Shown: positions 1,342 through 62,766, counted from the first letter of the stretch. The stretch is 64,000 nt of DNA from an uncultured Candidatus Saccharibacteria bacterium (GCA_964348725.1 CAYGDG010000001.1:65898-129897), one strand, 5' to 3'. The notes: generated by a model from the letters alone, not told the origin. Numbers and translations are program-made.

Positions 1342-2802
1342 ATGTCTTCAATAGAAGAAATCAGGGACGCTCGTCTTAAAAAACTGGAACTCCTCAAAGA
1401 GAAAGGCATAAATCCGTACCCGGCGGAATCTTTGCGCGAGTTATCGCTCGCCGAAGCGATAGAGAAATTCGAAGTGCTTGAAAAGAGCGCCGAAGAAAAA
1501 TGGGTTTCCGGCCGTGTGATGTCTATCCGCGGACAGGGAGCGATTATCTTTCTCACGCTGTATGACGGCACGGCCTCTTTTCAAGCGCTTCTTAAAAAAG
1601 ATTCGATGGGGGATGAAAAATTTGATCTGTTCGCGAATGTTGCCGATATGGGTGACTTCGTGGAAGTGCGTGGCTTTTTCTTTACTACCAAGCGCGGCGA
1701 AAAAACCGTCGAAGCCAAAGATTGGCGGATGCTCACGAAGACGCTCCAGCCTTTGCCGGAAAAGTGGCACGGCCTGCAGGACATAGAAGAGCGCTTCCGC
1801 AAGCGCTATTTGGACATATTGATGGACCCGGAAATAAAAGACCTCTTTGAAAAAAAGACAAAATTCTGGGAGACGGCGCGCAATTTCATGAAAGAGCGCG
1901 GATTTTTGGAAGTGGAGACGCCTTCCTTAGAAGTTACCACCGGCGGTGCTGAAGCGACACCTTTTAAAACATACAATGAATCATTCAACTTGCCGCTCTA
2001 TATGCGCATCTCTATTGGCGAGCTGTGGCAGAAGCGCCTCATGGCTGCCGGCTTTCCAAAGACATTTGAAATCGGCCGCGCATACAGGAATGAAGGCACG
2101 GACATGAACCATATCAATGAATTCACCAACCTTGAATTCTACTGGGCATATGCGAATTACAAAGACGGTATGGAACTCGTAGAAGCTTTGTATAAAAAAA
2201 TAGCGCTTGATGTATTCGGCAAGACCGAATTTGAAACTCGCGGACACAAGTTTGATTTGGGCGGGAAGTGGGAGCGCATCGATTATCGCGAACATGTGAA
2301 GAAAGAAACTGGTATCGATGTGCTCGACACCACATATGAAGAAGTAAAAAAGAAATTGGAACAGCTCGAAGTGAAATATGACGGAGATACCATGGAGCGC
2401 ATGATAGACACGCTCTGGAAATACTGCCGCCGGAAAATTTCCGGTCCGGTATTTTTGATCGGGCATCCGAAGCTCGTCTCTCCGCTGTCAAAATCAATGC
2501 CGGGAAATTCTGAACTTACCGAGCGCTTTCAGATAATTCTCGCTGGCTCGGAAGTGGGTAACGGCTTCTCAGAATTGAACGATCCGATAGACCAGGCAAA
2601 ACGGTTTGAAGTCCAGCAAGAGCTCACCAAAGCGGGGGACAAGGAAGCCATGATGCCTGATATGGAATTCGTGGAAATGCTGGAGCACGGCATGCCGCCC
2701 ACCTGCGGCTTTGGTTTCGGTGAAATGCTTTTTGCCTTCCTTGCCGACAAGCCTATCCGCGAAACGCAGCTCTTCCCGCTTATGCGGCCGAAACAGGAAT
2801 AA
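1342..2802 (+). CDS. lysS: Lysyl-tRNA synthetase, class II
   Basis: 486 aa. N-terminal OB anticodon-binding region and class II core motifs (FEIGRAYRNEG, GFGFGEMLFAFL). Confidence 0.95.
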   Translation: MSSIEEIRDARLKKLELLKEKGINPYPAESLRELSLAEAIEKFEVLEKSAEEKWVSGRVMSIRGQGAIIFLTLYDGTASFQALLKKDSMGDEKFDLFANVADMGDFVEVRGFFFTTKRGEKTVEAKDWRMLTKTLQPLPEKWHGLQDIEERFRKRYLDILMDPEIKDLFEKKTKFWETARNFMKERGFLEVETPSLEVTTGGAEATPFKTYNESFNLPLYMRISIGELWQKRLMAAGFPKTFEIGRAYRNEGTDMNHINEFTNLEFYWAYANYKDGMELVEALYKKIALDVFGKTEFETRGHKFDLGGKWERIDYREHVKKETGIDVLDTTYEEVKKKLEQLEVKYDGDTMERMIDTLWKYCRRKISGPVFLIGHPKLVSPLSKSMPGNSELTERFQIILAGSEVGNGFSELNDPIDQAKRFEVQQELTKAGDKEAMMPDMEFVEMLEHGMPPTCGFGFGEMLFAFLADKPIRETQLFPLMRPKQE

Positions 2803-9119: not shown

Positions 9120-9980
9120 TCATTTTGCTTTGTGCTTATTTAGTAGATAAAGAATATTATTAAGCTCTAGCCATAGGTACACATATTCCTTTTCAGTAAA
9201 ATTTTTTGGCTGACCTCCATTCTCGTGGTGAACATTTTTAATTACATAATCTAGAAAATTCTCAAAGTCAGAATTACTATCGTTAAATAGTATGTTTGAT
9301 AACTGCTTTTTCTCATGGATCCGCGGAAAGGTTCCGTCTGATCTTTTATAGCCATTCTGTAATGTATTTTCCACAACCTTTTTGAGATTATCGAGTGACT
9401 TATTATAAAAAAGTTTATCACTTTTAATTACATCTTTTTTATACAAAAGAAAATCTGAGACACATTCTTGATAGCGAATTTTATTATCACCTTCTAAGTC
9501 CGAATCGTTAGAATTGATTAATCTCGTATTTATCTCGTCAATCTTCCTTCGAAAATCATGATTTTTCTTATCGTAGTAGAAATCAAGATTAAAAACACTA
9601 GGGTTATTTGAACTAGCTATCAAATCAAAAAATTTATAAGTAATCACTGTAAAATCAGATCTTCGTTCATTGGGTATTTTTTGATACTGCCATTCTTCTT
9701 TTCCGAGGTATTGTAAGATGTTTGGTAATATTTCATTAAAAAATGATAAGAAAATTTCTTGCTCACCGTTCAAGTAAGTTTCTGCCAAAAAACTCATTAC
9801 AGGGTACCCATTTCTTTTTTTCTCACTATATTTATATTGAGAATTAATATCATCCGTTAGAATATACCTAATAATATTTTTATTCTCTGCTTCATTAAAT
9901 AAATTACAGGCTGATGCGTAAAAAGATTGATAATCATGAGCAAACTTTTCAAGATTAAGTTTTTGAAATTCATCATTCAT
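9120..9980 (-). CDS. Uncharacterised 286-aa protein, operon partner of the Shedu-like nuclease
   Basis: AT-rich ORF whose start overlaps the stop of the upstream gene by 8 nt (co-operonic). Asn/Lys/Tyr-rich composition and no recognisable motif. Confidence 0.6.
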   Translation of the reverse strand: MNDEFQKLNLEKFAHDYQSFYASACNLFNEAENKNIIRYILTDDINSQYKYSEKKRNGYPVMSFLAETYLNGEQEIFLSFFNEILPNILQYLGKEEWQYQKIPNERRSDFTVITYKFFDLIASSNNPSVFNLDFYYDKKNHDFRRKIDEINTRLINSNDSDLEGDNKIRYQECVSDFLLYKKDVIKSDKLFYNKSLDNLKKVVENTLQNGYKRSDGTFPRIHEKKQLSNILFNDSNSDFENFLDYVIKNVHHENGGQPKNFTEKEYVYLWLELNNILYLLNKHKAK

Positions 9981-11040
9981 ATAATGATTTTAAAAGTTTT
10001 AACTTTGAAATGACTTCATCAAAGGTCAGTATTTGATTCTTGCCTAATGATTTTCGAAATAGATCAAAAGACTTTTTTTGAGTTTCAGAAAGCGAATCGT
10101 ATGTTCCAGCTATTAAGACTCCGCAAGGGTTTAAATGTGTGAGTCCATCAAAATCAGCACCAATTTGAGTATTAAAATATTCTGTAGCAATATGAATTTG
10201 ATTTTCCATTTGAACAACTCCACCCGATAGATCTCCATGAATGCTGTACACTTCATTTTTTTCTCCGGAATCTTTTTCTCCTCGGTAACATGAACCGACA
10301 AGCGAGCAATTTGGCTCTTTAATCTCGACAACCGCAAAACTTCCATTTGAACCATTTTTAAATAAAAAATCAGTTGCAGATCCGCCTGACCCTTGGCGGC
10401 CTTTCGAATTTTTTCCACCTAAATATGTTTCTCCATTTAAGTATATAACGGGATATAAGAAAACTTGTTGCAATACCCACGGACGTTCTTCAAAAAAGGT
10501 TTGCCAAAAAGATTCTTCGTGATTTGAAAGACTAGACTCCATGTCAGCGATAGCTTTTTCAAGTCGAGCACGTCCAATTGCAAGACCTAGATTTTCAAAA
10601 TTGTTATCTTCAAGAGATCGTAACTGTTCAATGACCCATTCTCGATTAGAGATGTCTCCAATTTGTAAAAAAATACCAGGTGCACTTTCTTTCGTTAATG
10701 GAACTACTGTCGTTCCATAGGAATGACCATACTTTGTAAGAGTACTATTAATTTCAGATAACCTACTAAGTAATAAAGATACTTCTTCACCTTTGAGGGA
10801 AAGCTCGTAGCCTTCGTCTGACTTTAACGAGCTGAGTGTTTCATGTTCAATTGTCTCCCAAGTTCCTAAACGGGATTTTCTTTCAAATCTGAATAGGCCT
10901 CTTAACGAGTTGTCTGATTCGCTTACCCAAACAGGTGCAAAGATAAGACGAGATGTACTTGTCTCACGTAGCACAATAGGACTTATGTCCATTGTGGCAT
11001 TTGATGTTGATTTGGTAATTATTCTAGCAAGCATATTCAT
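9973..11040 (-). CDS. Shedu (SduA)/DUF4263-like PD-(D/E)xK nuclease
   Basis: 355 aa. The central segment ESFWQTFFEERPWVLQQVF resembles the DUF4263 N-terminal signature. Putative catalytic residues lie in TDFLF...FAVVEIKEP (D...ExK), and the tail ILTFDEVISKL is typical of the family. AT-rich composition; the gene sits directly downstream of a tRNA. Confidence 0.5.
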   Translation of the reverse strand: MNMLARIITKSTSNATMDISPIVLRETSTSRLIFAPVWVSESDNSLRGLFRFERKSRLGTWETIEHETLSSLKSDEGYELSLKGEEVSLLLSRLSEINSTLTKYGHSYGTTVVPLTKESAPGIFLQIGDISNREWVIEQLRSLEDNNFENLGLAIGRARLEKAIADMESSLSNHEESFWQTFFEERPWVLQQVFLYPVIYLNGETYLGGKNSKGRQGSGGSATDFLFKNGSNGSFAVVEIKEPNCSLVGSCYRGEKDSGEKNEVYSIHGDLSGGVVQMENQIHIATEYFNTQIGADFDGLTHLNPCGVLIAGTYDSLSETQKKSFDLFRKSLGKNQILTFDEVISKLKLLKSLYE

Positions 11041-11067: not shown

Positions 11068-11141
11068 CGGTGACCCTACCGGGAATCGAACCCGGATTTA
11101 AGGCTTGAGAAGCCTCCGTCCTAACCGTTAGACGATAGGGC
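11068..11141 (-). tRNA. tRNA-Glu (anticodon CTC)
   Basis: Minus-strand read GGCCCTATCGTCTAACGGTTAGGACGGAGGCTTCTCAAGCCTTAAATCCGGGTTCGATTCCCGGTAGGGTCACC folds as a cloverleaf with anticodon loop TTCTCAA. D arm TCGTCTA..GGTTAGGAC is Glu-like. Confidence 0.85.
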
Positions 11142-11198
11142 CATCGACAGGTGCCTATCATAAACGATAGGCCCAAGTGGAAACATCATATCATTTAC

Positions 11199-11275: not shown

Positions 11276-11809
11276 TTACGCTACCGCTGCACCGGATTCT
11301 TCCGTCTGAAGAGCTAGATCTGCAGTATCTTCTTTCATGATCATCGGCAGTTCTTTTTCTGCGGTCGAATCTGTCAAAAAAGATTTTCCCTTGAACATCT
11401 TCTTTGCTTCAATAGGACCAACGATTTTTGAAATAATTAGGGTGATTTTTTTTCCTGTACCTTCGTGAGTAAAGGATTTCGTTTGTCCTTTACGTCCTCC
11501 AATAAGTGCTTTACCTATGGGGGAACTCTCTGAGGAAACAGAATGATTCTTTGGGAGGCCGTCTCCGTTCAGGGGATAGCCATCGATGATAGTGAAGTAA
11601 TTTTCTGCACCGATCATGAATGCTATCCCGCTTCCGAATTTGGCCACCTTTGTTTGTTCATTTTTCGGGTAAAATTCCGGTGCTGCGACGAGCTTCGAAT
11701 ACAGCCTTTTCTGCTGTTCCGTTGAGTTTGGGTCTTTTAAAAGTTTGCGTGCGTGTTTTTTGGACCAAGGAAGAATCCGTAGGTGTCCAGGAGTTTCATG
11801 ACTGACCAT
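11276..11809 (-). CDS. GreA/GreB-family (Rnk-like) protein with the Gre C-terminal FKBP-like domain only
   Basis: SPIGKALIGGRKGQTKSF...KITLIISKI matches the Gre-factor C-terminal domain. It lacks the N-terminal coiled coil. An upstream TTGACT-N17-TATACT promoter lies on the minus strand. Confidence 0.7.
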   Translation of the reverse strand: MVSHETPGHLRILPWSKKHARKLLKDPNSTEQQKRLYSKLVAAPEFYPKNEQTKVAKFGSGIAFMIGAENYFTIIDGYPLNGDGLPKNHSVSSESSPIGKALIGGRKGQTKSFTHEGTGKKITLIISKIVGPIEAKKMFKGKSFLTDSTAEKELPMIMKEDTADLALQTEESGAAVA

Positions 11810-12267: not shown

Positions 12268-13317
12268 CTATTCTTCAAATTTTGGCTTCTCGATCTCGAG
12301 GCTCGTGAGCTCAGGCGAGGAGCCGGTGATTCGCATGACGTCTTTATCTATTTGTTTCAGTGCTTTATTGGATGCGGTGTAATGGTTTACTACTGTGCCG
12401 AGCGCGTTGCCGAGCTTGAGGTGGTATTCTTCGTAGCCTTTCAAATGCTTACCGAGGTCTTCCACGCGCTTGATGATGTCTTTAGCACTTTCTTCTATCT
12501 GCATCGCTTTTAAGCCCTGGAGGACTGTCTGCAAATATGCCAGGAATGAAGTGGGCGAAGTGATGATGACTTTGTATTTGCCCGCCGCGCGCTGGATGAG
12601 GTTTTCGTTGTCTTCGTCTTTCAGTCCGCCGATCTTGTTCACCAGCAAGTCATAATAGATAGCTTCGTGGGGGATGAACATGAAAGCAAAGTCGGTGGTG
12701 CCTTGGCTCGGCTGTACGTATTTTGCTGTTTCTACTATTCTGTTTTTTAGGTCGTTCACGAATATCTTTTCATATCTTTCTTTTTCGCCCGCGTCTATCG
12801 CTTCTGCCATACGATTGTAATTTTCCAACGAGAATTTTGAATCTATCGGAATTATTTTATCTTTCACGAATACCACTGCGTCCACTATCGTGCTGTCGGG
12901 GAATGGGTACTGCATCTGGTAACTGCCGGGCGGGAGGACATTTTTCAAAACCGTCTCCAAATAATATTCGCCGAGTATTCCGCGCTGTTTTGGATTCTTT
13001 AATATATTTTGCAAGTCCTGCAATTGGTCTGCAAAGCCCACGACTTGCTTTTGCCCTTCGCCCACGCGCACGAGCTCTTCAGTAATCTCGCGGATTATTT
13101 TATTTGATTCAGTGGAGTGAAATTTAAGAGACTCATTCATTTGCTTGTGCGTGTCGCCGAGTTTCGCGTCCACTGTCTTCTGTAATTCGTTCATCTGCTG
13201 GAGCAGGAGAGAAAAGCCCGTATCGTTCTGCGTATTTTCTTTTTTTCTGCCAAAGACGAAATAAACGACCACGCCGCCTGCGATGAGCCCGATAAGTATC
13301 CAAAATCCTGTTTGCAT
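12268..13317 (-). CDS. rmuC: DNA recombination protein RmuC
   Basis: N-terminal TM helix, a long coiled coil and the conserved LGEYYLETVL, FMFIPHEAIYYD region of the RmuC family. Confidence 0.85.
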   Translation of the reverse strand: MQTGFWILIGLIAGGVVVYFVFGRKKENTQNDTGFSLLLQQMNELQKTVDAKLGDTHKQMNESLKFHSTESNKIIREITEELVRVGEGQKQVVGFADQLQDLQNILKNPKQRGILGEYYLETVLKNVLPPGSYQMQYPFPDSTIVDAVVFVKDKIIPIDSKFSLENYNRMAEAIDAGEKERYEKIFVNDLKNRIVETAKYVQPSQGTTDFAFMFIPHEAIYYDLLVNKIGGLKDEDNENLIQRAAGKYKVIITSPTSFLAYLQTVLQGLKAMQIEESAKDIIKRVEDLGKHLKGYEEYHLKLGNALGTVVNHYTASNKALKQIDKDVMRITGSSPELTSLEIEKPKFEE

Positions 13318-13711: not shown

Positions 13712-14425
13712 TTATTTCCCCAAAAAGTGCTCCAGCGTATAAATCCAATCTTCTTCATTTGATTCACTTTGTTTTTTCTGGGCGAGTAACCACTGCAGAT
13801 ATCCCGGGTCTATGCGCGCGACGTCTTCTACCTTTTGCCCGTTGTATTTACCGAAAGGGAATGTCCGCATCAGGGACGGCTTGGCGGAAATTTCTATCAT
13901 TTTTTCTATAGCCTCGTCTTCACTCATACCGCTGTCGGTCAATTTTTTCTGTAATCTTTCAAAAAGCTTTTCTAATACTTTCACATCACCCATGGCATCG
14001 TGCGCTTGCGCGTCTATTTCTATTTCCAAGAGGTAGCGCAAGTATTGCAGATTATATTTTTCAATTTTCCCTTCGGCGTCCAGGTCGCGCGCCACGCGCA
14101 AAGTGCAGATGAAATTTGCCGGCACTATGCCTTCATTTTTCAGCATGCCCAAATCAAAAGCCGCATTGTGCGCGACGCAGATGGTTTCAGCATCTTCAAA
14201 AAGTTCTTTTATTTTTTGCTTGCCTTCATGCTCGGCGAAAGATGCTTTGCTTTCCACCATCTTATTTGAAATGTGATGCACTGCGCTGGCTTCTGGTGGA
14301 ATTTTTACCGGCGGCTTGTAGAGGCAGTTGAATTCTTCAGCACCATACTTGTATGCCAGCTGGCAGATGTAATCAGTAGTTGTATTACCAGTAGTCTCCG
14401 TATCAAAAAATATTATTTTCTTCAT
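13712..14425 (-). CDS. DEDDh 3'-5' exonuclease (exonuclease X-like) with C-terminal DUF3820-like domain
   Basis: Exo I/II/III motifs FFDTETTG, HNAAFDLGML, HDAMGDV. The C-terminal FGKYNGQKVEDV...DPGYLQWLL resembles the ExoX C-terminal domain. Confidence 0.8.
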   Translation of the reverse strand: MKKIIFFDTETTGNTTTDYICQLAYKYGAEEFNCLYKPPVKIPPEASAVHHISNKMVESKASFAEHEGKQKIKELFEDAETICVAHNAAFDLGMLKNEGIVPANFICTLRVARDLDAEGKIEKYNLQYLRYLLEIEIDAQAHDAMGDVKVLEKLFERLQKKLTDSGMSEDEAIEKMIEISAKPSLMRTFPFGKYNGQKVEDVARIDPGYLQWLLAQKKQSESNEEDWIYTLEHFLGK

Positions 14426-19556: not shown

Positions 19557-20990
19557 ATGGAAAAGAAGTATTATCCGACCATCGGACTTGAAATTCACGC
19601 GGAATTGGCGACGAAGACCAAGATGTTCTGCGCTTGCCTGAATGATCCGGACGAAGAAATTCCGAATAAAAATATCTGTCCCGTCTGCATGGCGCATCCG
19701 GGCACTTTGCCTGTGCCGAATAAGCAGGCCATTGAAAATGTGATAAAAATCGGCCTGGCGATAGGCGCGAATATCGCCGACTTTTCCGAATTTGACCGCA
19801 AGAATTATTTTTATCCCGACATACCAAAGGGTTACCAAATTTCACAATTCAAATACCCGATAGTTTCCGGCGGCAAGCTGGCTGATTTCGACATCACCCG
19901 TATCCATCTCGAAGAAGACACCGCGAACAATAAGCACGACCGCGGCGATTTTTCACTTATCGACTTCAACCGCGCCGGCGTACCGCTCTCCGAGCTCGTC
20001 ACTGAAGCGATGACATTCGATACTGCCGAAGATGCAGCCCACGCCGCTTCGAATTTTGCCAAAGAATACCAGCTATTGCTCCAGTATCTCGGCGTATGCG
20101 AAGCGAATATGGAAAAAGGCGAAATGCGCGTCGAAGCGAATGTATCCGTCTCGCCTGACCGCGAGAAAAAATGGAGCGCGTATGTGGAAGTAAAAAATCT
20201 GAACTCGTTCAAAACAGTAGAGAAAGCCATCAAGTATGAAGTCGAGCGGATGATAGAGCTTTTTGAAGCAGGCAGGGAAGCGGAAATCGTGAAGGAGACG
20301 CGCGGCTTCGACGACGGCAAGCAAGCCACTTTTTCCCAGCGCAAAAAAGAATCCAGCCAGGATTATCGTTATTTCCCGGATCCCGACCTGCCAAAGATGA
20401 AATTGCACGAAGCTTTTAATATCGAGAAATTAAGAAATGAATTGCCTGAGCTGCCGGTCGCCAAGCGCGCCCGTTATCAGAATGATTTCGGCATCAAGGA
20501 TGAAGACATCGAGACGTTCATCAATGAACATGAATTGGCGGCGTGGTTCGAAGGCACGGCTAAAATTTTAAATGACAAGGAAAAATCTCGCACTGCGGCG
20601 AACTTCATCACTTCTGACTTCATTGGTCTGCGAAAAGCTGACTTGGAGGCAAGACCTCCAAGCGCGGAGAGCTTTGCCGAATTGGTGAATATGTTCGCCG
20701 ATGCGAAGATATCTTCCCGCGCGGCCAAGGATATTTTGGCGATGATTTCCAAAAATGATGAAAGCCCGATGAAGATAGCCGAAGAGAAGAAATTGCTCCA
20801 GCAGAATGATGAAGGCGCATTGAAAGAAATCGTACAGAAAACGATAGACGCGAATCCCGAAGTCGTTGCTACATATAAGGGCGGAAAAGAAAATGCTATA
20901 ATGTCGCTAGTCGGAAAGGTGATAAAGGAGACGGCGGGCAGCGCCAATCCGCAAGTCGTTATAAAATTATTAAAAGAACTTTTAGCATAA
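19557..20990 (+). CDS. gatB: Asp-tRNA(Asn)/Glu-tRNA(Gln) amidotransferase subunit B
   Basis: YYPTIGLEIHAELATKTKMFCAC, the GatB N-terminal signature, plus a C-terminal YqeY-like domain. Confidence 0.95.
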   Translation: MEKKYYPTIGLEIHAELATKTKMFCACLNDPDEEIPNKNICPVCMAHPGTLPVPNKQAIENVIKIGLAIGANIADFSEFDRKNYFYPDIPKGYQISQFKYPIVSGGKLADFDITRIHLEEDTANNKHDRGDFSLIDFNRAGVPLSELVTEAMTFDTAEDAAHAASNFAKEYQLLLQYLGVCEANMEKGEMRVEANVSVSPDREKKWSAYVEVKNLNSFKTVEKAIKYEVERMIELFEAGREAEIVKETRGFDDGKQATFSQRKKESSQDYRYFPDPDLPKMKLHEAFNIEKLRNELPELPVAKRARYQNDFGIKDEDIETFINEHELAAWFEGTAKILNDKEKSRTAANFITSDFIGLRKADLEARPPSAESFAELVNMFADAKISSRAAKDILAMISKNDESPMKIAEEKKLLQQNDEGALKEIVQKTIDANPEVVATYKGGKENAIMSLVGKVIKETAGSANPQVVIKLLKELLA

Positions 20991-24082: not shown

Positions 24083-24550
24083 ATGAAAAAAACCGAAGCG
24101 GCATTTAAGTGGATAGTAAATATTTTAAATGAGCATCAGATTCCTTTCCAAATTGCCGGAGGATTTGCCGCTCGGCTGTATGGGTCTACAAGAGAACTTG
24201 CTGATATCGATATAGATATCCCCGCAGGAAGAATCGAAGACATACAAGAGGATGTGAAAGAATATATAATCTTTGGCCCTGAGATGTATAAAGATGAAAA
24301 TTGGGATTTATTATTGATGACCTTGCGATATGAAGGCCAGGATATAGATATTTCTAGTATTGATACGGTCAAAATTTTTAATCAAAATACCCAGAATTGG
24401 GAAGATGGTGCTTTAGATTTTCAAGATACAAGAATCCATACTGTCTTTGGTCTGGATGTTCCAGTCATTTCTAGGGAAAATCTGATAAAATATAAGAGCA
24501 AGCTCTTGAGAGAAGTAGATAAGCTAGATATTGAAGAAATTTCAAAATGA
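24083..24550 (+). CDS. ANT(2'')/Lnu(A)-family nucleotidyltransferase-like protein
   Basis: IPFQIAGGFAARLYGSTRELADIDIDIP parallels the WIGGGWAIDARLGRVTRKHDDIDLTFP core of aminoglycoside-2''-adenylyltransferase and lincosamide nucleotidyltransferase. About 155 aa. Confidence 0.65.
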   Translation: MKKTEAAFKWIVNILNEHQIPFQIAGGFAARLYGSTRELADIDIDIPAGRIEDIQEDVKEYIIFGPEMYKDENWDLLLMTLRYEGQDIDISSIDTVKIFNQNTQNWEDGALDFQDTRIHTVFGLDVPVISRENLIKYKSKLLREVDKLDIEEISK

Positions 24551-26274
24551 AATCCGAAATCAAAAAATTCTTTAAGGGGGAAGTGGAGGATGATGTGGAA
24601 ACACTCGGCAAGTACAGCCACGATGCGAGCATTTTTGAAGTGCGGCCGCAGGTGGTGTGCTATCCGAAGGATTCGTACGATGTACAGCACCTCGTCGCCT
24701 GGGTGGCGGATAATAAAAAACATCATCCGCATCTTTCCATCACCGCCCGCTGTGCTGGCACGGACATGTCCGGTGCGGCCATTGGTGAATCCATTATTTT
24801 GGATTTCACCCGGCATATGAATAAATTGATTGCATTCTCACCCTCTCCTTTACAAGGAGAGGGCCGGGGTGAGGTGAATTCCACTTCCATCACCGTCCAG
24901 CCCGGTATGTTCTACCGCGATTTTGAAAAAATTACTTTGGAGAAGGGAATGATTCTGCCGTGTTATACCGCTTCAAAGAGCATCAATGCAGTGGGCGGGA
25001 TGTACGGTAATAATTCTGCCGGCGAGCGCACGCTGAAATACGGCAAGACGGAGAATTATATCGTGTCGGCGAAAGTGGTTTTTGCGGATGGTGTTGAAAG
25101 GGAAGTGAAATCTTTTCCGGTAGGTATGATGGAAAAACAGCCAGAGATGTACAGGAAATTGTACGAGCTCGTAAAAAATAATGAAGACGATATTACTCAT
25201 GCAAAGCCGCAGGTAAGCAAGAATTCCGCCGGATATTATTTGTGGAATCTAATCCGGCGGGACTCTGCTAATTTTGCCGCTTTACCCGCAAGCGGGCTCC
25301 GACAGGGCCAAAATTCCCAGAGTCCCGCCTACTTTGATCTGAACAAAGTACTTGTCGGCTCGCAAGGCACGCTCGGCATTGCTACGGAAATCACTTTTCG
25401 CCTCGTGCCAGAGCAGAAATATTCAAAATTAGTGGCGATATTCATGAATGACCTTTCGCCGCTCGGGCGCCTTGTGCCGGAGATATTATCGCAAGAGCCG
25501 GAAACGCTAGAGAGCTATGACGACAAGACTATGAAGCTTGCCGTGCGATTTTTCCCCGATTTTTTAAAAAATAAAGGACTCATCGGAATGATAAAATTCA
25601 TGTGGAGCTTTGTACCGGAATTAAAAATGATGCTCGGTATTCATGGGGGTGGTTTCCCGAAACTCATTTTACTTGCGGAATTTGCCGGCGAAAATGAGGA
25701 AGAAGCGCACAAGAAATGCGAGCGATTGGTGGAACGCATCAAAGAATTTAAATTAAAGACACACATCACAAAGAGCAAAGCTGAGGCGGATAAGTATTGG
25801 GACATCCGTCGGCAGAGCTTCGCACTCCTGCGCAAGCACGTGGCGGGAAAAAAAACCGCGCCGTTCATAGATGACATCATCGTGCGTCCGGAATTCTTGC
25901 CGAAATTTATTCCGGAGCTGAACGCCATACTTTCAAAATATGATTTGACCTATACCATAGCCGGCCACGCAGGCGACGGGAATTTCCACATCATCCCGCT
26001 GATGGATTTCAAACGCGAAGACACGGGGAAGATAATCATGGAGCTGTCAGACAAAGTGTATGACCTGGTGGCGCGCTATCGCGGCTCCATCACCGCCGAG
26101 CACAATGACGGTCTCGTGCGCACGCCGTATCTCGGCAAAATGTACAGTGAAAAGATGCTCCGCCTCTTTGCTGAAACCAAGAAGATTTTTGATCCGCAAT
26201 ACATTCTCAATCCAGGTAAAAAAGTGGGCACCACTAAGCAGTATTTAGCAGAGCATATCTCGAAAAACATCTAG
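24547..26274 (+). CDS. FAD-linked oxidase (GlcD/D-lactate dehydrogenase family)
   Basis: PCMH-type FAD-binding domain (ITARCAGTDMSGAA...TVQPGM) and a C-terminal FAD-oxidase domain. It contains two in-frame repeat insertions. Confidence 0.85.
   Translation: MKSEIKKFFKGEVEDDVETLGKYSHDASIFEVRPQVVCYPKDSYDVQHLVAWVADNKKHHPHLSITARCAGTDMSGAAIGESIILDFTRHMNKLIAFSPSPLQGEGRGEVNSTSITVQPGMFYRDFEKITLEKGMILPCYTASKSINAVGGMYGNNSAGERTLKYGKTENYIVSAKVVFADGVEREVKSFPVGMMEKQPEMYRKLYELVKNNEDDITHAKPQVSKNSAGYYLWNLIRRDSANFAALPASGLRQGQNSQSPAYFDLNKVLVGSQGTLGIATEITFRLVPEQKYSKLVAIFMNDLSPLGRLVPEILSQEPETLESYDDKTMKLAVRFFPDFLKNKGLIGMIKFMWSFVPELKMMLGIHGGGFPKLILLAEFAGENEEEAHKKCERLVERIKEFKLKTHITKSKAEADKYWDIRRQSFALLRKHVAGKKTAPFIDDIIVRPEFLPKFIPELNAILSKYDLTYTIAGHAGDGNFHIIPLMDFKREDTGKIIMELSDKVYDLVARYRGSITAEHNDGLVRTPYLGKMYSEKMLRLFAETKKIFDPQYILNPGKKVGTTKQYLAEHISKNI
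24841..24876. repeat. Family-A GC-rich palindromic repeat inserted in frame in the FAD oxidase gene
   Basis: CCCTCTCC-TTTACAA-GGAGAGGG-CCGGGGTGAGGTG, translated PLQGEGRGEV. About 29/36 nt identical to the copy at 35231-35263. Confidence 0.7.
25279..25330. repeat. Family-B-like palindromic repeat (TTTACCCGC-AA-GCGGG...) in frame in the FAD oxidase gene
   Basis: TTTACCCGCAAGCGGGCTCCGACAGGGCCAAAATTCC, translated LPASGLRQGQNSQSP. It shares TTTACCCGC...GCGGG with the atpG copy at 35561. Confidence 0.5.
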
Positions 26275-30258: not shown

Positions 30259-30299
30259 AAGCGAGGCAAGACCTAACATGTTAGGTCTTGCCTCGCTTA
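30259..30299 (+). other. Perfect 19-bp hairpin in the 5' leader of the tRNA-Ile transcript
   Basis: AAGCGAGGCAAGACCTAAC-ATG-GTTAGGTCTTGCCTCGCTT, directly after a TGTTATATT -10 box at 30247-30255, with tRNA-Ile 11 nt downstream. Confidence 0.6.
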
Positions 30300-34916: not shown

Positions 34917-35855
34917 ATGGCCTCAACGAAAGAAATCAAAAGACGAATAAAGTCGGTGAAGAACACCAAGAAGATAACCAAAGCGATGGAACTCGTGGCG
35001 GCTTCAAAGATGCGCCGCGCGGTGGCGCAGGCGCTTTCTTCGCGCGTGTATGCCGGATATTCGTGGGAGCTTTTGACTTCTCTTTCGGCGCGGTTGGACG
35101 AGATCACGCACCCATTTTTCAATGAAGCCAAAGACGGAAAGACCTTGCTTGTCCTCATCACCTCAAACGGCTCATTGTGCGGAGGATATAACGCGCAAGC
35201 AATCAAAAAGGCTATTTCTCTTCTGCGCGACCCTCTCATTGCCAGGAGAGGGCAGGGTGAGGTAGACATAGTTTCAATAGGAAAGAAAGGCGATGCCGCG
35301 ATGCGCCGGACGGGGCAAAATGTCATCGCCGCATTTACGGACTTGCCCGCCGGGCTCTCGCTTTCCGATGTCTCGCCCATCTCCGCCCTCCTCCTTTCCG
35401 AATACAAAAAGAAAAATTATAAGGAAATATTTGTCGTCTATACGGACTTCGTATCCGCCCTCACGCAGAAGCCGAATATCAGGAAGCTCCTGCCGATTTC
35501 AAAACAAGAAATAAAAGATTTGATAGAGATAGAAAAGAAAGAGGCGAGAGTGGAGAGAGGTTTACCCGCCGTGGCGGGAGTCGGGGCGAATTCAGAAATT
35601 CCTTACCTCATAGAAGGCGACGCCAACAAACTGATAGAAATGCTCGCGGAGAAATTGGTCAGAATGCAGATTTATCAGATGCTCCTGGAGTCCGGAGCGA
35701 GCGAGCAGTCAGCCAGGATGGTCGCGATGAAAAATGCCTCCGAAGCCGCCGGCGAAATGATAGAAGACCTCACCCTCGTCTTCAACAAAGCCCGCCAAGC
35801 CGGCATCACGCAGGAAATATCGGAGATAAGCGCGGGTATGGCATCGGTTAGCTAA
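34917..35855 (+). CDS. atpG: F0F1 ATP synthase subunit gamma
   Basis: MASTKEIKRRIKSVKNTKKITKAMELVAASKMRRA and the C-terminal ARQAGITQEISEISAG are gamma-subunit signatures. It carries two in-frame palindromic repeats. Confidence 0.9.
   Translation: MASTKEIKRRIKSVKNTKKITKAMELVAASKMRRAVAQALSSRVYAGYSWELLTSLSARLDEITHPFFNEAKDGKTLLVLITSNGSLCGGYNAQAIKKAISLLRDPLIARRGQGEVDIVSIGKKGDAAMRRTGQNVIAAFTDLPAGLSLSDVSPISALLLSEYKKKNYKEIFVVYTDFVSALTQKPNIRKLLPISKQEIKDLIEIEKKEARVERGLPAVAGVGANSEIPYLIEGDANKLIEMLAEKLVRMQIYQMLLESGASEQSARMVAMKNASEAAGEMIEDLTLVFNKARQAGITQEISEISAGMASVS
35231..35263. repeat. Family-A GC-rich palindromic repeat in frame in atpG
   Basis: CCCTCTCA-TTGCCAG-GAGAGGG-CAGGGTGAGGT, translated PLIARRGQGEV. 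Paralogous to 24841-24876. Confidence 0.7.
35561..35590. repeat. Family-B palindromic repeat (CCCGCCGTGGCGGG core) in frame in atpG
   Basis: TTTACCCGCCGTGGCGGGAGTCGGGGCGAA, translated LPAVAGVGA. The identical 14-mer CCCGCCGTGGCGGG recurs at 45660. Confidence 0.65.
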
Positions 35856-40024: not shown

Positions 40025-41982
40025 AGTATATCCTCAGGATCTGCATGTACAGAAAATTCCGGTGGTAGGGAAAGGATTTTTACAGCGAGGCGCTCGTCTG
40101 GCATTTTTCCGGCGGGAATTTTGATCAGCATATTTGTGATATATGCGCCTGCCTGCCGTCCGGTAAATGCGGCATAGATGTGCGGCTCGTATTCGCGGAA
40201 TACTTCGGCGAGGGCGTGCTTTATTTCAGCCGCTTGTTCGCGCGTGCCCTGGTGGGTGATTTTAAGAAAGCGCACATACGGCGGATAGCCGAGCTTTTCC
40301 CGGTCCGCTAATTCTTCGCGCACATATGGCAGGATGTTGCCTTCGGTGATGGCGCGCAGGGCCGGTTCATTCGGATTTTTTGTGCGGATGAGCAGGCGAT
40401 TGCTCTTTGCGATGATGGCAAGCAAGAGCTGGAGCGCTCGTTCGCCGATGCGGAAATTCGGTATGGAAAAAAGGGAATCAAGCGAAGCGATGACTGAGAG
40501 CGGCACGCGCTCGGGCAGATACGGAAATGCGAGCTCTGTGCCCACGAGGATGGCGCCGCGGCTCTCGGCGAATTGCGCGGCTATTTTTTTTGCCTGCGGG
40601 GCGGTCTTTACGGATTCTTTGTCCAGCTGGAATATTTCTGTTTTCGGAAAATTTTCGCGGCATGCTTCAGCCACGGCATCCGTACCCACGCCGAGCGGCA
40701 TGAGGTTCCAGCCGCCGCATGTTGCGCACTTGGTATTGGAATCTTTTTCGCTGTGGCAACGGTTGCAGGCGTAGCGGCGTTTTGATTTGTCACGCGAGAA
40801 ATACAGCACTACCGGTGCGGAGCATTTATCGCAGAATACTGGCGTGCCGCAATCGCGGCATACGGTGAGCGTGCCGAGCCCTTTGCGCAGGGAAAAGATA
40901 AAAACATTCTCGCCTTTTTGCAAAGTGCTTTGTATCTCCTCCCGTGCGGCTTCGGGCAGGATATTGAACCCGCCCGGGCGGGCAGGCTTCTCTTCTTTTT
41001 CCAGTATTTTGATTTCGCAGTCTGAATCGGTGCGGAAAGAAAATCGCACTTCGCCGAAGTGTTCGTTCTCGCGGCGGGCGATGGTGTCAAAGCGGAGCAA
41101 CGTGTCCGCAAAGATGAGCCGGGCGCCCATTTTCGCCGCGAAAAATTCGGCAAAGATGCGCAAGTCCAGATATGGGCGTGCGATGAGCTTATACGCGCCG
41201 GAGCTTTCATGCTCTATGATTACTGTGCCGATGTCGGCCCGCGGTATGGATACGTATGGCGCGGTGGCGAGGATGAGCACGGGGTGAGGGCACGCTATAG
41301 TAGCGAGCCAGGTACTCGTCTGCTTTTTTGTGGTCATGCCGCCATGGACGGAGAAAGTAAAATTCTCTATGCCTTTTTGTAATAACTCGGAAAATATTTC
41401 TATGTCGCGCTCGGTGGGCAATACGATAAAGACGGATTTTTTCTCGGCGAATGACGAGCGGATGAGCGTTTTGTAATGCGAGACGCGTTCGGCGAGTGGA
41501 GATTGGAAAAGAAGTTTTTCGGGCACGCTTCGCGCAGAATGTGAATCCTGGGGTCGCATAATTTCCTGCTGGAAATTTGCTCCTGCTCGGCCCGACGGCC
41601 TGTGCAAGACCCCAGGATTCACATTCTGCGCTTTACTGATGAGATCATAATTCTCCCGGAATGCCGCGGGGATGAGCGAAGCGATAGTGTCATTTTTTCT
41701 GGCGGCGGAATATTTTGCCAGCTCCAGCGCGCTTTCTAAAAATTCCGGGCGAAATACGGAGTTGCCTTTTACCTCGGTCACCTTGCGCAGATTGAAATCC
41801 ATATTCTTAATGTCGCTCTTTGCGCCCTCGGCATCTTCAGTGGAAGCCACCAGCCCGAGGATATTTTTTTTACGCACCGGTATTTCCACGATGGCGCCTA
41901 CAGGCGCGTCCTTTGCCGTAAAATACGTCAGGTCCTCGCGGAAAGCGCCTTTTTGGAGGGGAATTACGGTCAGGATTTTCAT
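40021..41982 (-). CDS. priA: Primosomal protein N' (PriA) with degenerate helicase motifs
   Basis: N-terminal 3' DNA-binding domain, Cys-rich zinc-binding insert (CRDCGTPVFCDKCSAPV...CNRCHS...CATCGG) and a C-terminal domain. Walker A is replaced by SPLAERVSHY and DEEH by IEHE. Confidence 0.8.
   Translation of the reverse strand: MKILTVIPLQKGAFREDLTYFTAKDAPVGAIVEIPVRKKNILGLVASTEDAEGAKSDIKNMDFNLRKVTEVKGNSVFRPEFLESALELAKYSAARKNDTIASLIPAAFRENYDLISKAQNVNPGVLHRPSGRAGANFQQEIMRPQDSHSARSVPEKLLFQSPLAERVSHYKTLIRSSFAEKKSVFIVLPTERDIEIFSELLQKGIENFTFSVHGGMTTKKQTSTWLATIACPHPVLILATAPYVSIPRADIGTVIIEHESSGAYKLIARPYLDLRIFAEFFAAKMGARLIFADTLLRFDTIARRENEHFGEVRFSFRTDSDCEIKILEKEEKPARPGGFNILPEAAREEIQSTLQKGENVFIFSLRKGLGTLTVCRDCGTPVFCDKCSAPVVLYFSRDKSKRRYACNRCHSEKDSNTKCATCGGWNLMPLGVGTDAVAEACRENFPKTEIFQLDKESVKTAPQAKKIAAQFAESRGAILVGTELAFPYLPERVPLSVIASLDSLFSIPNFRIGERALQLLLAIIAKSNRLLIRTKNPNEPALRAITEGNILPYVREELADREKLGYPPYVRFLKITHQGTREQAAEIKHALAEVFREYEPHIYAAFTGRQAGAYITNMLIKIPAGKMPDERLAVKILSLPPEFSVHADPEDIL
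40969..40982. repeat. Family-B palindrome CCCGCCCGGGCGGG inside priA
   Basis: 14-nt perfect palindrome of the CCCGCC-NN-GGCGGG type, encoding KPARPGGF on the minus strand. Confidence 0.5.
41532..41631. repeat. ~100-nt compound inverted-repeat (MITE-like) element in frame inside priA
   Basis: Perfect 24-bp arms GCGCAGAATGTGAATCCTGGGGTC and GACCCCAGGATTCACATTCTGCGC flank a 52-nt core that has its own small IRs (TTTCCTGCTGGAAA, GGCCCGACGGCC). Confidence 0.7.
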
Positions 41983-43036: not shown

Positions 43037-43708
43037 ATGCTTGCCGAACATTTTCACCACGCATATCTGATAGAAGGAAATGAAATTCCGGAGGATATGC
43101 GGGAATTTTGCCAGAATTCTGATCTGTGCGAGATAGTCCTGGATACTTTTAAAATAGATGATGCGAAGCACGTGCGGGCGCTGGCGGGGGAGAAAAGCAG
43201 TAAGCGGAAAATCTTTGCCGTCCGCGCGAACAGCCTGACTTTAGATGCGCAGAACGCGCTCCTGAAGATATTTGAAGAGCCTGCGCCGGACACGCATTTT
43301 CTTCTGATTGTGCCGGAGAAAGCATCGCTTTTGCCCACGCTCCTTTCGCGCTTTTATCATGTGCCGAGCGAACAGAACGTAGACACGAGGGACGCGGAAA
43401 AATTTATACGCATGCCGCGCGCGGCGAGGGTAGAGTTTTTAAAAGAACTGCTTACTGAGGAAGATTTTGAAGATGTATCAGCCGAGCTTCGCGCCGACTC
43501 GCCGCGCTCCAAAGCGCTAAAATTCTTAAATGCCCTAGAGCGCGCCCTGCATGACCAGATTTTTGCAAAGGACGGTCCTTTGCAATCCAAAGGACCGTCC
43601 TTTGCAACTTTTGACCAGATATTCACTGCCCGCGAATTTATCCGCATGCCAGGCTCTTCGGCGAAATCCCTCATGGAATCGGTCGCGCTGGCGATTCCAA
43701 ATTTTTAG
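43037..43708 (+). CDS. holB: DNA polymerase III delta' subunit (HolB), short form
   Basis: AAA+ clamp-loader layout with HAYLIEG, FEEPAPDTHFLLIV and sensor TLLSRFY. It contains an in-frame repeat insertion. Confidence 0.75.
   Translation: MLAEHFHHAYLIEGNEIPEDMREFCQNSDLCEIVLDTFKIDDAKHVRALAGEKSSKRKIFAVRANSLTLDAQNALLKIFEEPAPDTHFLLIVPEKASLLPTLLSRFYHVPSEQNVDTRDAEKFIRMPRAARVEFLKELLTEEDFEDVSAELRADSPRSKALKFLNALERALHDQIFAKDGPLQSKGPSFATFDQIFTAREFIRMPGSSAKSLMESVALAIPNF
43552..43620. mobile_element. 51-nt palindromic insertion flanked by a 9-bp target-site duplication, in frame in holB
   Basis: TGACCAGAT [TTTTGCAAAGGACGGTCCTTTGCAATCCAAAGGACCGTCCTTTGCAACTTT] TGACCAGAT. The insert is two copies of the self-complementary 20-mer CAAAGGAC(G/C)GTCCTTTGCAA. 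Insert plus duplication is 60 nt, so the frame is kept, with DQIF duplicated at protein level. Confidence 0.7.
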
Positions 43709-50345: not shown

Positions 50346-51230
50346 CTACTTTTTTATTTTAGACGCATCTCGCCATTTTATTTCTTTATCTCTTTTGAAC
50401 CACGTCATCTGCCGCTTGGCGTATTTGTGAATCTCAGAATCCAGTTTTGCCAGCATCTCTGGCTTAGTCATTTTTTTCTGCAAATATAAAGCGAGATAGC
50501 GATACTCCAAGCCGAGCTCAGCCATGCGTTTCCAGGAAAGGCCTTTTTTGTGTAAATTCTGCGCTTCCCTCAGCATGCCTGTTTTCATTCTCTTCAAAAG
50601 GCGAGCATGAATTTTTACTTTCAATTTTTCTTCAGGCAGATACAGCCCGATTTTTTCAAATTGGTATTTTGGAGAAGACTTTTTTATTTTTGGCACTTTG
50701 CCGAGGGCCGTGGCTATTTCAATCGCACGGATTATGCGGACGTTGTTATCTTTATCTATGGTTTTTGCGCGAGCCGGGTCTAGCTTCTGCAATGTAACAA
50801 AATTTGCGATAGCAGACTTTGTTACAAGTTTCTTGCGGAGCGCGGCATCAGGCGGAACTTCGGGTAATACGATACCGTTCACTACCGCATCTATATAAAA
50901 GCCCGTGCCACCGCAGAGGATAGGCGTGTGGCTGCGAGCGATGATTTCTTTTATTTTTACATCAGCCAATTTTTTAAAATCAGCGACAGAAAAAACCCCG
51001 CCACGGCGGGCAAGTTTCTTTGGATTCGCGACATCTAGCAGATGATGCGGCACGCCCCGCATTTCTTTTTTTGTTATTTTACCGGAACCGATATCAAGGC
51101 CTGTGTACACTTGCCGCGAATCAGCGGAGATAATTTCGCCGTTTACTTTTTTAGCAAGCTTTACAGCTAAGTCGCTCTTGCCAGTGGCCGTCTGCCCCAA
51201 TATGACGATGACTTTTGGTTTTTTTTGCAT
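50346..51230 (-). CDS. miaA: tRNA dimethylallyltransferase MiaA
   Basis: P-loop GQTATGKS and the MiaA core DIGSGKIT. Confidence 0.9.
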   Translation of the reverse strand: MQKKPKVIVILGQTATGKSDLAVKLAKKVNGEIISADSRQVYTGLDIGSGKITKKEMRGVPHHLLDVANPKKLARRGGVFSVADFKKLADVKIKEIIARSHTPILCGGTGFYIDAVVNGIVLPEVPPDAALRKKLVTKSAIANFVTLQKLDPARAKTIDKDNNVRIIRAIEIATALGKVPKIKKSSPKYQFEKIGLYLPEEKLKVKIHARLLKRMKTGMLREAQNLHKKGLSWKRMAELGLEYRYLALYLQKKMTKPEMLAKLDSEIHKYAKRQMTWFKRDKEIKWRDASKIKK

Positions 51231-61718: not shown

Positions 61719-61719
61719 A

Positions 61720-61804
61720 TCCCGTTAGAGATTAAAATGTTAAAAGTAATTATTAAAAGCTATATAACTACAGGAATGCGAAGCATTCCTTATCTCTAAC
61801 GGGA
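61720..61804. repeat. Compound palindromic intergenic element spanning exactly from the ftsQ-like stop to the dus start codon
   Basis: 13-bp arms TCCCGTTAGAGAT and ATCTCTAACGGGA flank a 58-nt AT-rich core with an inner IR AGGAATGC-GA-AGCATTCCT. The right arm ends at the A of the dus ATG. Confidence 0.65.
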
Positions 61805-62766
61805 TGAACTTCTGGAATAAATTAAAAAAGCCTTTTTTTGTCCTCGCGCCGATGGCGGATGTGACGGACTGTGCTTTCAGGCAGATCATAAATAAATACG
61901 GTAAACCGGATGTTTTTTGGACGGAATTCGTATCAGCGGACGGCTTGGCGCATCCGGAGGCGCGGGAAAAACTTTTAATTGATTTTAAATTTACGCCGGG
62001 CGAGCACCCGATCGTGGCGCAGATATTCGGCTCGCGGCCGGAGAATATTGAAAAGGCCGCCGCACTGTGCGCTGAGCTTGGTTTTGACGGCGTGGATATC
62101 AATATGGGATGTCCGGATAAGAGTATAGAAAAGCAATGCGCCGGCGCGGCGATGATGAAAGACCCGGCTCTCGCTAGGGAAGTGATCCGTGCGGCAAAAC
62201 GCGGCGCCCGCCGCGGCGGGCAAGCGCCATTGCCGGTATCGGTGAAGACGCGCATCGGCTATAACAAAAATGAAATACAGACATGGCTAGCGGAAATTTT
62301 GAAAGAAGACGTGGCGGCGCTCACGGTGCATTTGCGAACTCGTAAAGAAATGTCCCTCGTGCCAGCGCATTGGGATGTGATGCCAGAAATCGTGGCGCTT
62401 CGGGATAAGCTCGCGCCGGGTACTTTGATAATAGGAAATGGTGATGCAGTAGATATCGCCGACGCAAAACAAAAAGTAAAAGAAACCGGATGCGATGGCG
62501 TGATGCTCGGCAGGGCAATCTTTGGCAACCCGTGGCTTTTTGCGGAAAAAATTCCAACGCTTGAAGAAAAATTGAAAGTGATGATAGAGCATACGAAGCT
62601 CTTTGAAGAACTACTCGGCCAGCACAAAAACTTCGCAATTATGAAAAAGCATTACAAAGCATATGTGAATGGCTTTGACGGCGCGAAAGAAATGCGAGTG
62701 GAACTAATGGAAGCGGAGAATGCAGACCAGATCGCGGCTATTGTTGACAATTTCATGAATAAGTGA
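61804..62766 (+). CDS. dus: tRNA-dihydrouridine synthase (DusB-like)
   Basis: TIM-barrel Dus signature LAPMADVTDCAFRQI and the FMN-binding Cys loop GVDINMGCP. Confidence 0.9.
   Translation: MNFWNKLKKPFFVLAPMADVTDCAFRQIINKYGKPDVFWTEFVSADGLAHPEAREKLLIDFKFTPGEHPIVAQIFGSRPENIEKAAALCAELGFDGVDINMGCPDKSIEKQCAGAAMMKDPALAREVIRAAKRGARRGGQAPLPVSVKTRIGYNKNEIQTWLAEILKEDVAALTVHLRTRKEMSLVPAHWDVMPEIVALRDKLAPGTLIIGNGDAVDIADAKQKVKETGCDGVMLGRAIFGNPWLFAEKIPTLEEKLKVMIEHTKLFEELLGQHKNFAIMKKHYKAYVNGFDGAKEMRVELMEAENADQIAAIVDNFMNK
62207..62220. repeat. Family-B palindrome CCCGCCGCGGCGGG in frame in dus
   Basis: 14-nt perfect palindrome encoding ARRGG within RGARRGGQAPL. Confidence 0.55.

Follow-up and report, generated by a model that had tools for sequence, protein, structure and literature searches.

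The present analysis concerns a 64,000-nt stretch of a contig attributed to an uncultured Candidatus Saccharibacteria bacterium (GCA_964348725.1, CAYGDG010000001.1:65898-129897), which is referred to as the window throughout, and in particular a 100-nt inverted-repeat element located in frame within an open reading frame (ORF) encoding a protein similar to PriA, which acts in replication restart. The element separates two conserved parts of the protein and occupies nearly the whole of the linker that joins them. Palindromes of other sequences are present in several further genes of the window, including holB, atpG and a FAD-oxidase-like gene, and the features discussed below are collected in Table 1.

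An inverted-repeat element within priA

Read on the plus strand, the element occupies positions 41532-41631 and comprises GCGCAGAATGTGAATCCTGGGGTC (41532-41555), a 52-nt core and GACCCCAGGATTCACATTCTGCGC (41608-41631). An earlier note on this DNA, made from the sequence alone, had described perfect 24-bp inverted arms enclosing such a core, and the repeat finder bore this out, as the two arms are complementary at 24/24 positions and, spaced by 52 nt, yield a total of 100 nt. The ends of the inverted repeat are sharp, with the adjoining flank bases unpaired. It is also evident that a repeat of this kind is, as had been claimed, far beyond chance. When the window was block-shuffled 30 times, perfect stems reached at most 15 nt versus 24 nt in the priA element, and the arm 24-mer, with up to three mismatches allowed, has only its two matches in the window and none in 100 dinucleotide-preserving shuffles. 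The window as a whole contains 14 perfect inverted repeats of at least 12 nt versus 0.6 expected from block shuffles.

The predicted folding of the element is similarly extreme. The mRNA-sense strand folds at -71.3 kcal/mol (z = -11.1 relative to shuffles) and the element as DNA at -43.6 kcal/mol (z = -12.1), while a sliding scan identifies it as the strongest 100-nt fold of the entire window (GC-corrected z = -7.4). The small palindromes that the earlier note had placed within the core are real as well. By itself, the core forms two hairpins, AATTTCC/GGAAATT and GGCC/GGCC, at -19.9 kcal/mol (z = -3.5), which was equalled by one of 200 shuffles. The whole element is a T/Y-shaped palindrome, in which a 24-bp stem closes a core with two small hairpins. 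Its GC content is ~57% over the 100 nt at 41531-41630 and ~58% for the core as counted from the sequence, with the rest of the window mostly at 39-50%. Rfam searches at permissive E-values returned only noise on the element (a trypanosomatid snoRNA at E = 0.28 and a lncRNA at E = 4.8), and a promoter/terminator scan found no signal on it.

The priA ORF is continuous through the element, which contains no stop codon and adds ~33 translated residues. The element begins at codon position 1 of A118 and stops at the first base of R151, thus encoding the peptide AQNVNPGVLHRPSGRAGANFQQEIMRPQDSHSA(R). In-frame translation, as previously claimed, therefore stands, with the residue range shifted by one from 117-150 to aa 118-151. 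An intein, an intron or a split gene is ruled out, since the element measures only 100 nt and a continuous ORF encodes the two halves of PriA in the same frame. There is likewise no need to invoke programmed translational bypass as in T4 gene 60 or the 'byp' elements, as the frame is open and no stop follows the would-be take-off codon.

Chimeric fragments can also yield perfect inverted repeats, and a fold-back chimera introduced during library construction or assembly could have been written into the contig. This origin is hardly credible for the priA element. Two separate assemblies, the Logan assembly of ERR3094292 (a 19-kb contig) and the 174-kb NCBI/ENA contig, agree base for base over 14.5 kb (14,527 nt), element included. 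Furthermore, three contigs on record encode the identical 653-aa protein, and the organism is found in at least two runs (ERR3094292 and ERR3094302). The reading frame is preserved with no stop codon added, and similar in-frame hairpins are present in many independent assemblies of related genomes. A 24-nt repeat is also shorter than the usual assembler k-mers, and no assembly ambiguity would be expected from it.

The host gene and its linker

The host protein has an N-terminal 3'-DNA-binding domain, a helicase core with a Cys-rich zinc insertion and a C-terminal domain. The first of these scores 22.1 bits against Pfam PriA_3primeBD (aa 18-105), marginally under the cut-off of 22.7, whereas the match to Klebsiella pneumoniae PriA 4NL4 (aa 211-584) takes in the CxxC motifs of the zinc insertion. 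The 540 homologues are PriA-like proteins of Patescibacteria (Nomurabacteria, Paceibacterota and Minisyncoccia), and the best non-self match is 55% identical. Going by these homologues, the source genome is placed within the Patescibacteria (Paceibacteria), which belong to the candidate phyla radiation (CPR).

In an alignment of 24 homologues, the element was placed exactly between the conserved blocks YDxISK and EKLLFQ, an interval that is unalignable and of unequal length among these proteins. Among 91 parseable homologues, the linker ranges from 15 to 41 aa with a median of 20, and the 37 aa of the window PriA is the second longest. Even the closest PriA, at 55% identity, has a linker that cannot be aligned with that of the window. 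In an AlphaFold2 model built on the alignment, residues 121-152 have a predicted local distance difference test score (pLDDT) below 50 and no secondary structure. The ~33 element-encoded residues are best described as an unconserved, predicted-disordered tether between the 3'-DNA-binding domain and the helicase-like core. The orthologue alignment that the earlier note had proposed thus gave the outcome compatible with an insertion, since these residues are not conserved in the PriA of other bacteria and occupy a hypervariable linker predicted to be disordered.

Two further observations concern the host protein itself. Its Walker A (GxGKT) and DExH motifs are not intact (aa 159-175 and 254-259), with QSPLAERV and IIEHE found instead of what we take, from a manual alignment to E. 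coli PriA, to be the counterparts GVTGSGKT and DEEH. The degenerate helicase motif is kept across the 24 aligned homologues, and the PriA of this clade may, judging from sequence, be ATPase-dead. The winged-helix domain of PriA also appears to be replaced by the short linker.

Table 1. Positions of the priA element, its host gene and the other palindromes of the window.
Feature	Position	Strand	Basis or remarks
PriA-like ORF, 653 aa	40021..41982	-	Pfam PriA_3primeBD aa 18-105; E = 1e-27 to PriA 4NL4 over aa 211-584
Hypervariable PriA linker, codons 118-154, between helix 106-116 and strand 155-159; the element makes up 34/37 codons	41521..41631	-	Alignment and AlphaFold2
Element arm, 3' arm in mRNA sense, encodes (R)PQDSHSA(R)	41532..41555	-	Inverted repeat
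Core sub-hairpin GCA-T-AATTTCC / TGCT loop / GGAAATT-TGC; 7-bp perfect stem with 3-bp extension	41556..41580	-	Folding
Core sub-hairpin CTGC..GGCC / CGAC loop / GGCC..GCAA; 4-bp GC stem with 4-bp closing helix	41583..41607	-	Folding
Element arm, 5' arm in mRNA sense, starts at codon position 1 of A118, encodes AQNVNPGV	41608..41631	-	Inverted repeat
holB perfect palindrome, 20+5+20, 45 nt, in frame (FAKDGPLQSKGPSFAT), in a gapped variable loop; two copies of AAGGACNGTCCTT (family B)	43563..43607	+	
FAD-oxidase-like ORF (24547..26274), hairpin CCCTCTCCTT-TAC-AAGGAGAGGG followed by the tag CC-GGGGTGAGGTG (family A), in frame as SPSPLQGEGRG	24841..24876	+	
FAD-oxidase-like ORF, 92-nt imperfect palindrome, 12-bp perfect outer stem and inner hairpins, in frame	25247..25338	+	
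atpG (34917..35855), small palindrome CCCGCC-GT-GGCGGG, loop ARVERGLPAVAGVGAN	loop 35532-35615, palindrome ~35560-35580		
Intergenic perfect 40-nt palindrome (family E), directly 5' of the tRNA gene at 30311	30259..30298	.	

Hairpins in the same loops of related genomes

The earlier note had grouped the priA element with palindromes in holB, atpG and the FAD-oxidase-like gene as evidence that palindromic elements are tolerated inside essential genes. This view was confirmed and can be widened, as comparison with orthologues or a solved homologue shows the palindromes of holB (one) and of the FAD-oxidase-like gene (two) to be insertions, and hairpins are found in the same loops of other genomes. 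The first FAD-oxidase hairpin (23 nt plus a purine tag) corresponds to an insertion of 10-11 aa relative to the glycolate oxidase 9qgz, while the 92-nt palindrome (-41 kcal/mol) lies within ~64 extra residues relative to the same protein. The small atpG palindrome lies in a variable loop, which is longer here than in two of four orthologues. The other palindromes within ORFs of the window are unrelated in sequence to the priA element and are thus not copies of one element. By blastn-short, the priA element has no relation to the families A, B and E described below. Kinship with the 92-nt FAD-oxidase palindrome was likewise rejected, as the faint resemblance between the two cores (20/26 nt in the best local alignment) is non-significant, being equalled by 32 of 500 shuffles.

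A comparison of the syntenic mreB-priA-holB region from eight other Paceibacteria genomes places the element in a broader context. In the three PriA with short linkers (15-20 aa; P0003, P0010 and P0019), the linker DNA is unstructured and, in two of the three, very AT-rich. By comparison, the five PriA with longer linkers (P0002, P0009, P0087, P0024 and P0054) each have a linker hairpin with a z of -5 to -7, and these hairpins are all different in sequence and usually GC-richer than the remainder of the gene. The PriA-linker hairpins vary fully in sequence, in stem (10-24 bp) and in loop (2-52 nt). When peptide signatures are used as a guide, at least ~19 of 98 homologue linkers look hairpin-derived, as gauged from protein sequence only. 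A similar result can be observed for holB and atpG of other genomes, in which hairpin-encoded residues land in the same gapped loops as they do in the window. For example, atpG of both L032 and L033 carries hairpins of 18-21 bp in the same variable loop as the atpG palindrome of the window. The PriA linker and a few other essential-gene loops repeatedly host unrelated hairpins in related genomes.

Some of these hairpins are shared between genomes. Family A, with the pattern CCCTCYCCTT-N3-AAGGRGAGGG, is found in the FAD-oxidase-like gene of the window, in holB of L029, where it adds a clean insertion of 10 aa, as well as in the L027 priA linker. It is also present in 34 IMG/VR stretches, always accompanied by the one-sided tag GGGGTGAGGT, and a 7.3-kb Mu-like phage fragment (L038) contains five copies, three of them within ORFs. 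Family B consists of two copies of AAGGACNGTCCTT and occurs in holB of the window as well as in the priA linkers of L028 (3362-3401) and L032 (~10373-10412). The latter two read the hairpin in different frames (KGQSL..QGLSL versus KDGP..KDRP), whereas at the centre of the two copies the bases are complementary in every case (G/C, A/T and G/C), and from this complementarity it follows that family B is conserved as a hairpin, at the level of nucleic acid, and not as a peptide. Family E has the arm GCGAGGCAAGACCTAAC and is intergenic in the window, while in the priA linker of L033 (10362-10397) it recurs in frame (SEARPNTLGLAS) with 17/17 identity, even though the L033 PriA is only ~51% identical to that of the window. 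Each of the three families has one locus in the window. Consequently, one priA copy per 64 kb fits a low-copy family and is not evidence against one. Families A, B and E cannot be local inventions and behave as dispersed low-copy hairpin repeats.

This recurrence brings up the possibility that the priA hairpin is under selection, whether as a translation throttle or pause at the domain boundary, as an RNase III site or as an autoregulatory single-stranded DNA (ssDNA) or RNA hairpin bound by PriA. The number of linkers that look hairpin-derived by peptide and the DNA hairpins in all five long-linker homologues that were checked are in keeping with such a role, as are the extreme stability of the element and the retention of family B through a frame change with complementary central bases, which amounts to conservation at the nucleic-acid level. 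However, most homologues, including the best non-self match P0003, have a short linker with no hairpin, and the hairpin is therefore dispensable. Sequence, stem length and loop all differ among PriA linkers, the same families are found in unrelated genes, intergenic DNA and phage genes, and the element has neither an Rfam family nor a promoter or terminator signal. A selected function accordingly has a low probability.

Other observations in the window

Strong folds were also noted within the rsmH/MraW, gatB and miaA ORFs (4941-5040, 20641-20740 and 50761-50860, respectively; z = -3.0 to -3.6). LysRS (1342..2802) contains an inverted repeat at 1471-1591 with 17-nt arms that are 94% complementary and 87 nt apart. 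We rejected this repeat as a further instance of the same phenomenon, since it lies in the conserved OB-fold anticodon-binding region and is not an insertion; it could be due to chance or to mRNA structure.

A separate, conserved inverted-repeat pair, ATCCCGTTAGAG...CTCTAACGGGAT, has arms of 14-15 nt enclosing unrelated AT-rich spacers of 59-96 nt and is intergenic in three distant genomes (61719-61805 in the window, 2858-2957 and 7015-7138 in L027, and 19323-19432 in L031). The contexts are upstream of dus, between mreB and priA, and within the atp operon. No Rfam match was obtained for the pair at the gathering threshold, and it could be a true miniature inverted-repeat transposable element (MITE), an operator pair or a structured leader.

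In addition, a Shedu (SduA) anti-phage gene (9973-11040) is encoded in a stretch of lower GC content (~39-41%). It is neighboured by ORFs with no Pfam match (9120-9980 and 11276-11809) and a tRNA gene (11071-11142), and RmuC (12268-13317) and an ExoX-like exonuclease (13712-14425) are found nearby. This stretch may be a small defence island.

Origin of the priA element

The 100 nt described here are a DNA/RNA-level element, not a protein feature. We tentatively favor the interpretation that they represent a selfish hairpin insert, similar in kind to the Rickettsia palindromic elements (RPEs) or to the hairpins formed by doublets of repetitive extragenic palindromic (REP) sequences, termed REPINs, and that the insert survives because its linker is permissive. 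According to this interpretation, the element would have arrived as the insertion of a selfish hairpin-forming repeat, either RPE-like or REPIN-doublet-like. Each arm has GCGC at its outer end, and this palindromic tetranucleotide could conceal a 4-bp target duplication created upon arrival, in which case the net gain would be 96 nt, or 32 codons; this would explain how the reading frame was kept by a 100-nt palindrome. Presumably, the linker need only be a flexible tether, and an in-frame, stop-free insert would be nearly neutral at this position. Where a CPR genome is compact and leaves very little room between genes, permissive loops of proteins could be among the few refuges for such sequences. 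Likely side effects would include a very stable mRNA hairpin ~350 nt into priA as well as a cruciform or ssDNA hairpin at replication.

A number of findings weigh against a selfish insert. Neither the arms nor the core have a further copy or a diverged relative in the window, as searched by pattern (up to three mismatches) and by blastn-short, although the window amounts to only ~10% of the source genome if a CPR genome is taken as ~0.6-1 Mb, and the copy-number test is thus weak. In 185,579 species genomes, the JGI metagenomes and IMG/VR, an 18-mer taken from mid-arm matched only singly and by chance, with unrelated flanks (7, 17 and 2 stretches, respectively, each with one match and never paired arms). 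These matches collapse to a handful of unrelated loci that recur, and their flanks share nothing with the element; the source genome gave no self-match and therefore lies outside both large collections. With blastn, the whole element matched nothing in the plasmid and phage collections or among 5,426 genomes of E. coli. At the peptide level, a phmmer search of the 34-aa sequence against 1.84 billion representatives yielded only two tandem-repeat proteins (P0121 and P0122), which is a weak test, as this library holds one representative per 50%-identity cluster, while six-frame peptide searches of a 5.8-billion-protein index missed even the source protein P0001 (local phmmer E = 2e-11) and are hence uninformative. 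Pfam identified no transposase, integrase or HUH/Y1 domain among 48 scanned ORFs of the window. Moreover, the flanks (TTC on one side and TTT on the other) contain no direct repeat outside the inverted repeat and no unambiguous target-site duplication. Removal of the element would leave only 3-5 linker residues versus at least 15 in every homologue, so a simple insertion also requires that the original linker was lost. Lastly, the arms are perfect and exactly 8 codons long, as a recent local template switch would give.

The genome-wide search for the 24-mer arm that had been suggested previously was thus carried out for the window with the full arm and for the collections with its 18-mer, and paired arms were found in priA alone. 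The earlier note had also anticipated that the arms might be absent elsewhere and explicable by a local duplication-inversion; the absence is borne out by all data searched, and a local origin is a candidate explanation. An ERIC-like origin was discarded, as nothing was found by blastn in the 5,426 E. coli genomes. ERIC is not known to share more than the 8-mers GTGAATCC and CCCCAGGA with the arm.

The same results bear upon the classification of the element as a MITE, as proposed in the earlier note. A classical MITE would have arisen by deletion from an insertion sequence (IS), would end in 24-bp terminal inverted repeats with a target-site duplication outside them, and would depend for its movement on a transposase acting in trans. 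The 100-nt size, the perfect terminal inverted repeats and the stable stem-loop transcript all match the description of prokaryotic MITEs (PMC10969869), and the putative hidden GCGC duplication would be compatible with one. However, the copy number is one in all data searched, no transposase is encoded within the 64 kb, and direct repeats outside the inverted repeat are absent. Furthermore, prokaryotic MITEs are typically AT-rich and intergenic (PMC10969869), whereas the priA element is GC-rich and lies inside an essential-type ORF. The family assignment consequently could not be sustained, and a classical MITE seems improbable.

The short remnant left by removal of the whole element is better accommodated if the inverted repeat was formed in place. 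In this scenario, a template switch during replication, in which the nascent strand for a moment took nearby linker sequence as its template in reverse complement, would have copied one 24-nt arm from the other, with the core and one arm representing the old linker. We regard such an origin as somewhat unlikely, although it is the main rival of the selfish insert. In its favor, one arm is the exact reverse complement of sequence 52 nt away, the 24/24 perfect arms imply a recent single event, and an arm comprises 8 codons, so the addition of one would preserve the frame. Subtraction of a single arm from the linker leaves 37 - 8 = 29 aa, which falls within the homologue range of 15-41 aa, as opposed to the 3-5 aa that remain after removal of the whole element. 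Nothing like the sequence was found elsewhere in the data searched, and a clear target duplication is missing. Template switching, moreover, has been documented to create perfect stems in one step (PMC8794818) and was proposed for the perfect coding palindromes of nematomorph mitochondria (PMC6649704). Conversely, the core, as the supposed old linker, is structured (z = -3.5) and has ~58% GC, while structure is lacking in the homologue linkers that have no hairpin, two of the three being very AT-rich. In addition, the other palindromes of this clade are not local, since identical hairpins are present in different genes and genomes, and no microhomology that could prime a simple fold-back was seen upon inspection of the arm/core junctions.

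A bolder extension of the selfish-insert interpretation, and one that we consider doubtful, is that the Paceibacteria (CPR) host an as yet undescribed population of hairpin repeats. Near-identical families, distributed across genomes with ~50%-identical PriA, would recolonise the same disordered loops (the PriA linker, HolB, AtpG and the FAD oxidase) in any open frame, and their stems would be kept by compensatory changes. Such repeats might constitute a 'coding REPIN' with hairpin-based copying or correction, or they might be functional nucleic-acid signals in linkers. Within a population of this kind, the priA element may be the largest and freshest example, and it has no recognisable transposase alongside it in the 64-kb window.

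Several implications follow from these possibilities. Rickettsia and some mitochondria are the main known cases of palindromic selfish DNA that lies in frame within essential genes, and the same outcome is now encountered in a free-standing CPR lineage with several unrelated hairpin families and reproducible landing loops. Our literature searches turned up no report of in-frame hairpin repeats from Patescibacteria/CPR. Should the elements be mobile, an active hairpin-based process of mobility or correction would be at work in CPR genomes, with no transposase seen nearby in the 64 kb that were scanned. If they were instead formed in place, CPR replication would be unusually prone to template switching. 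Either way, hairpins would account for part of the odd G/P/R-rich insertions in CPR proteins, which calls for caution in annotation, alignment trimming and structure prediction, and they mark the loops at which PriA, HolB and AtpG accept an arbitrary peptide. The clade-wide hairpin pattern is a more valuable lead than the single priA element.

Comparison with known systems

The priA element exhibits partial similarity to several classes of palindromic sequence. Like MITEs, it is small, has perfect terminal inverted repeats, a presumably non-coding origin and a stable stem-loop transcript, and MITEs also occasionally fuse in frame with host ORFs (PMC10969869). Unlike MITEs, it has no demonstrable target duplication or partner IS, its copy number is one, and it is GC-rich and intragenic. 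The parallels to REPINs are of a similar extent. Both measure ~100 nt and consist of two inverted units around a spacer that form one long hairpin. REPINs lack a classical target duplication, and none is unambiguous at the priA element; the spread of REPINs is thought to proceed via ssDNA hairpins. The REPIN concept is reportedly that of Bertels and Rainey in 2011. REP sequences are described as short palindromic units with a conserved end tag (GTAG/CGTC) that are high-copy, extragenic and associated with a RAYT gene (PMC3733652), which encodes the Y1 HUH transposase that mobilises them. In contrast, the priA arms are not self-palindromic and have no GTAG/CGTC tag, the element is single-copy and intragenic, and the window encodes no Y1/HUH gene.

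Intrastrand triplex-motif repeats (TMECO and related), which family A matches, have been published from E. coli and other prokaryotes (PMC4666352). The published arrangement CCCTCTCCC-loop-GGGAGAGGG-NN-GGGGTGAGGG shares the layout of a hairpin and a purine tag with the family A hairpin of the FAD-oxidase-like gene (PMC4666352). In the E. coli analysis, the triplex motifs were placed relative to neighbouring ORFs and intergenic DNA, whereas the FAD-oxidase hairpin is in frame within the gene. The priA element itself lacks a purine tag and does not resemble these motifs.

Perfect inverted repeats inside translated ORFs, with no repeat family required, are likewise a feature of the repeats attributed to template switching (PMC8794818) and of the coding palindromes of nematomorphs (PMC6649704). 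Comparison with these cases suggests that the perfection of coding palindromes reflects either a one-step origin or active correction of one arm by the other. In the nematomorph palindromes, however, both arms encode conserved regions under amino-acid selection (PMC6649704), whereas the arms of the priA element encode an unconserved linker predicted to be disordered. Mitochondria provide a further parallel, with GC-rich hairpin or double-hairpin units inhabiting compact genomes, coding regions included, and the T/Y shape of the priA element resembles that of double-hairpin elements. Gene-invading hairpins of this type include the double-hairpin elements of Allomyces and the translationally bypassed 'byp' elements of Magnusiomyces. 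The byp elements are also cited in PMC6649704, and repetitive hairpin-forming elements in sponge mitochondrial DNA are reported in PMC2800124. These organellar families, unlike the priA element, exist in many copies; the ribosome passes over the byps, while the priA frame is open and needs no bypass.

RPEs are hairpin-forming sequences of 100-150 nt that are found in frame in housekeeping genes at fold-compatible positions (Ogata et al. 2000, as summarised in PMC10969869). In R. conorii, 10 families account for 44 insertions, each family encoding a conserved peptide (PMC10969869), and the arms of RPEs decay over time (PMC6649704). The priA element is similarly a stable palindrome within the 100-150-nt range that is in frame, translated and located at a fold-compatible position in a small, reduced genome. 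It is distinguished from RPEs by its single known copy, its CPR host and its perfect arms, whereas RPEs form repeated families with a conserved peptide. Of all these systems, RPEs are the closest to the priA element in behaviour, despite the absence of family repetition, the different host and the apparent lack of sequence kinship.

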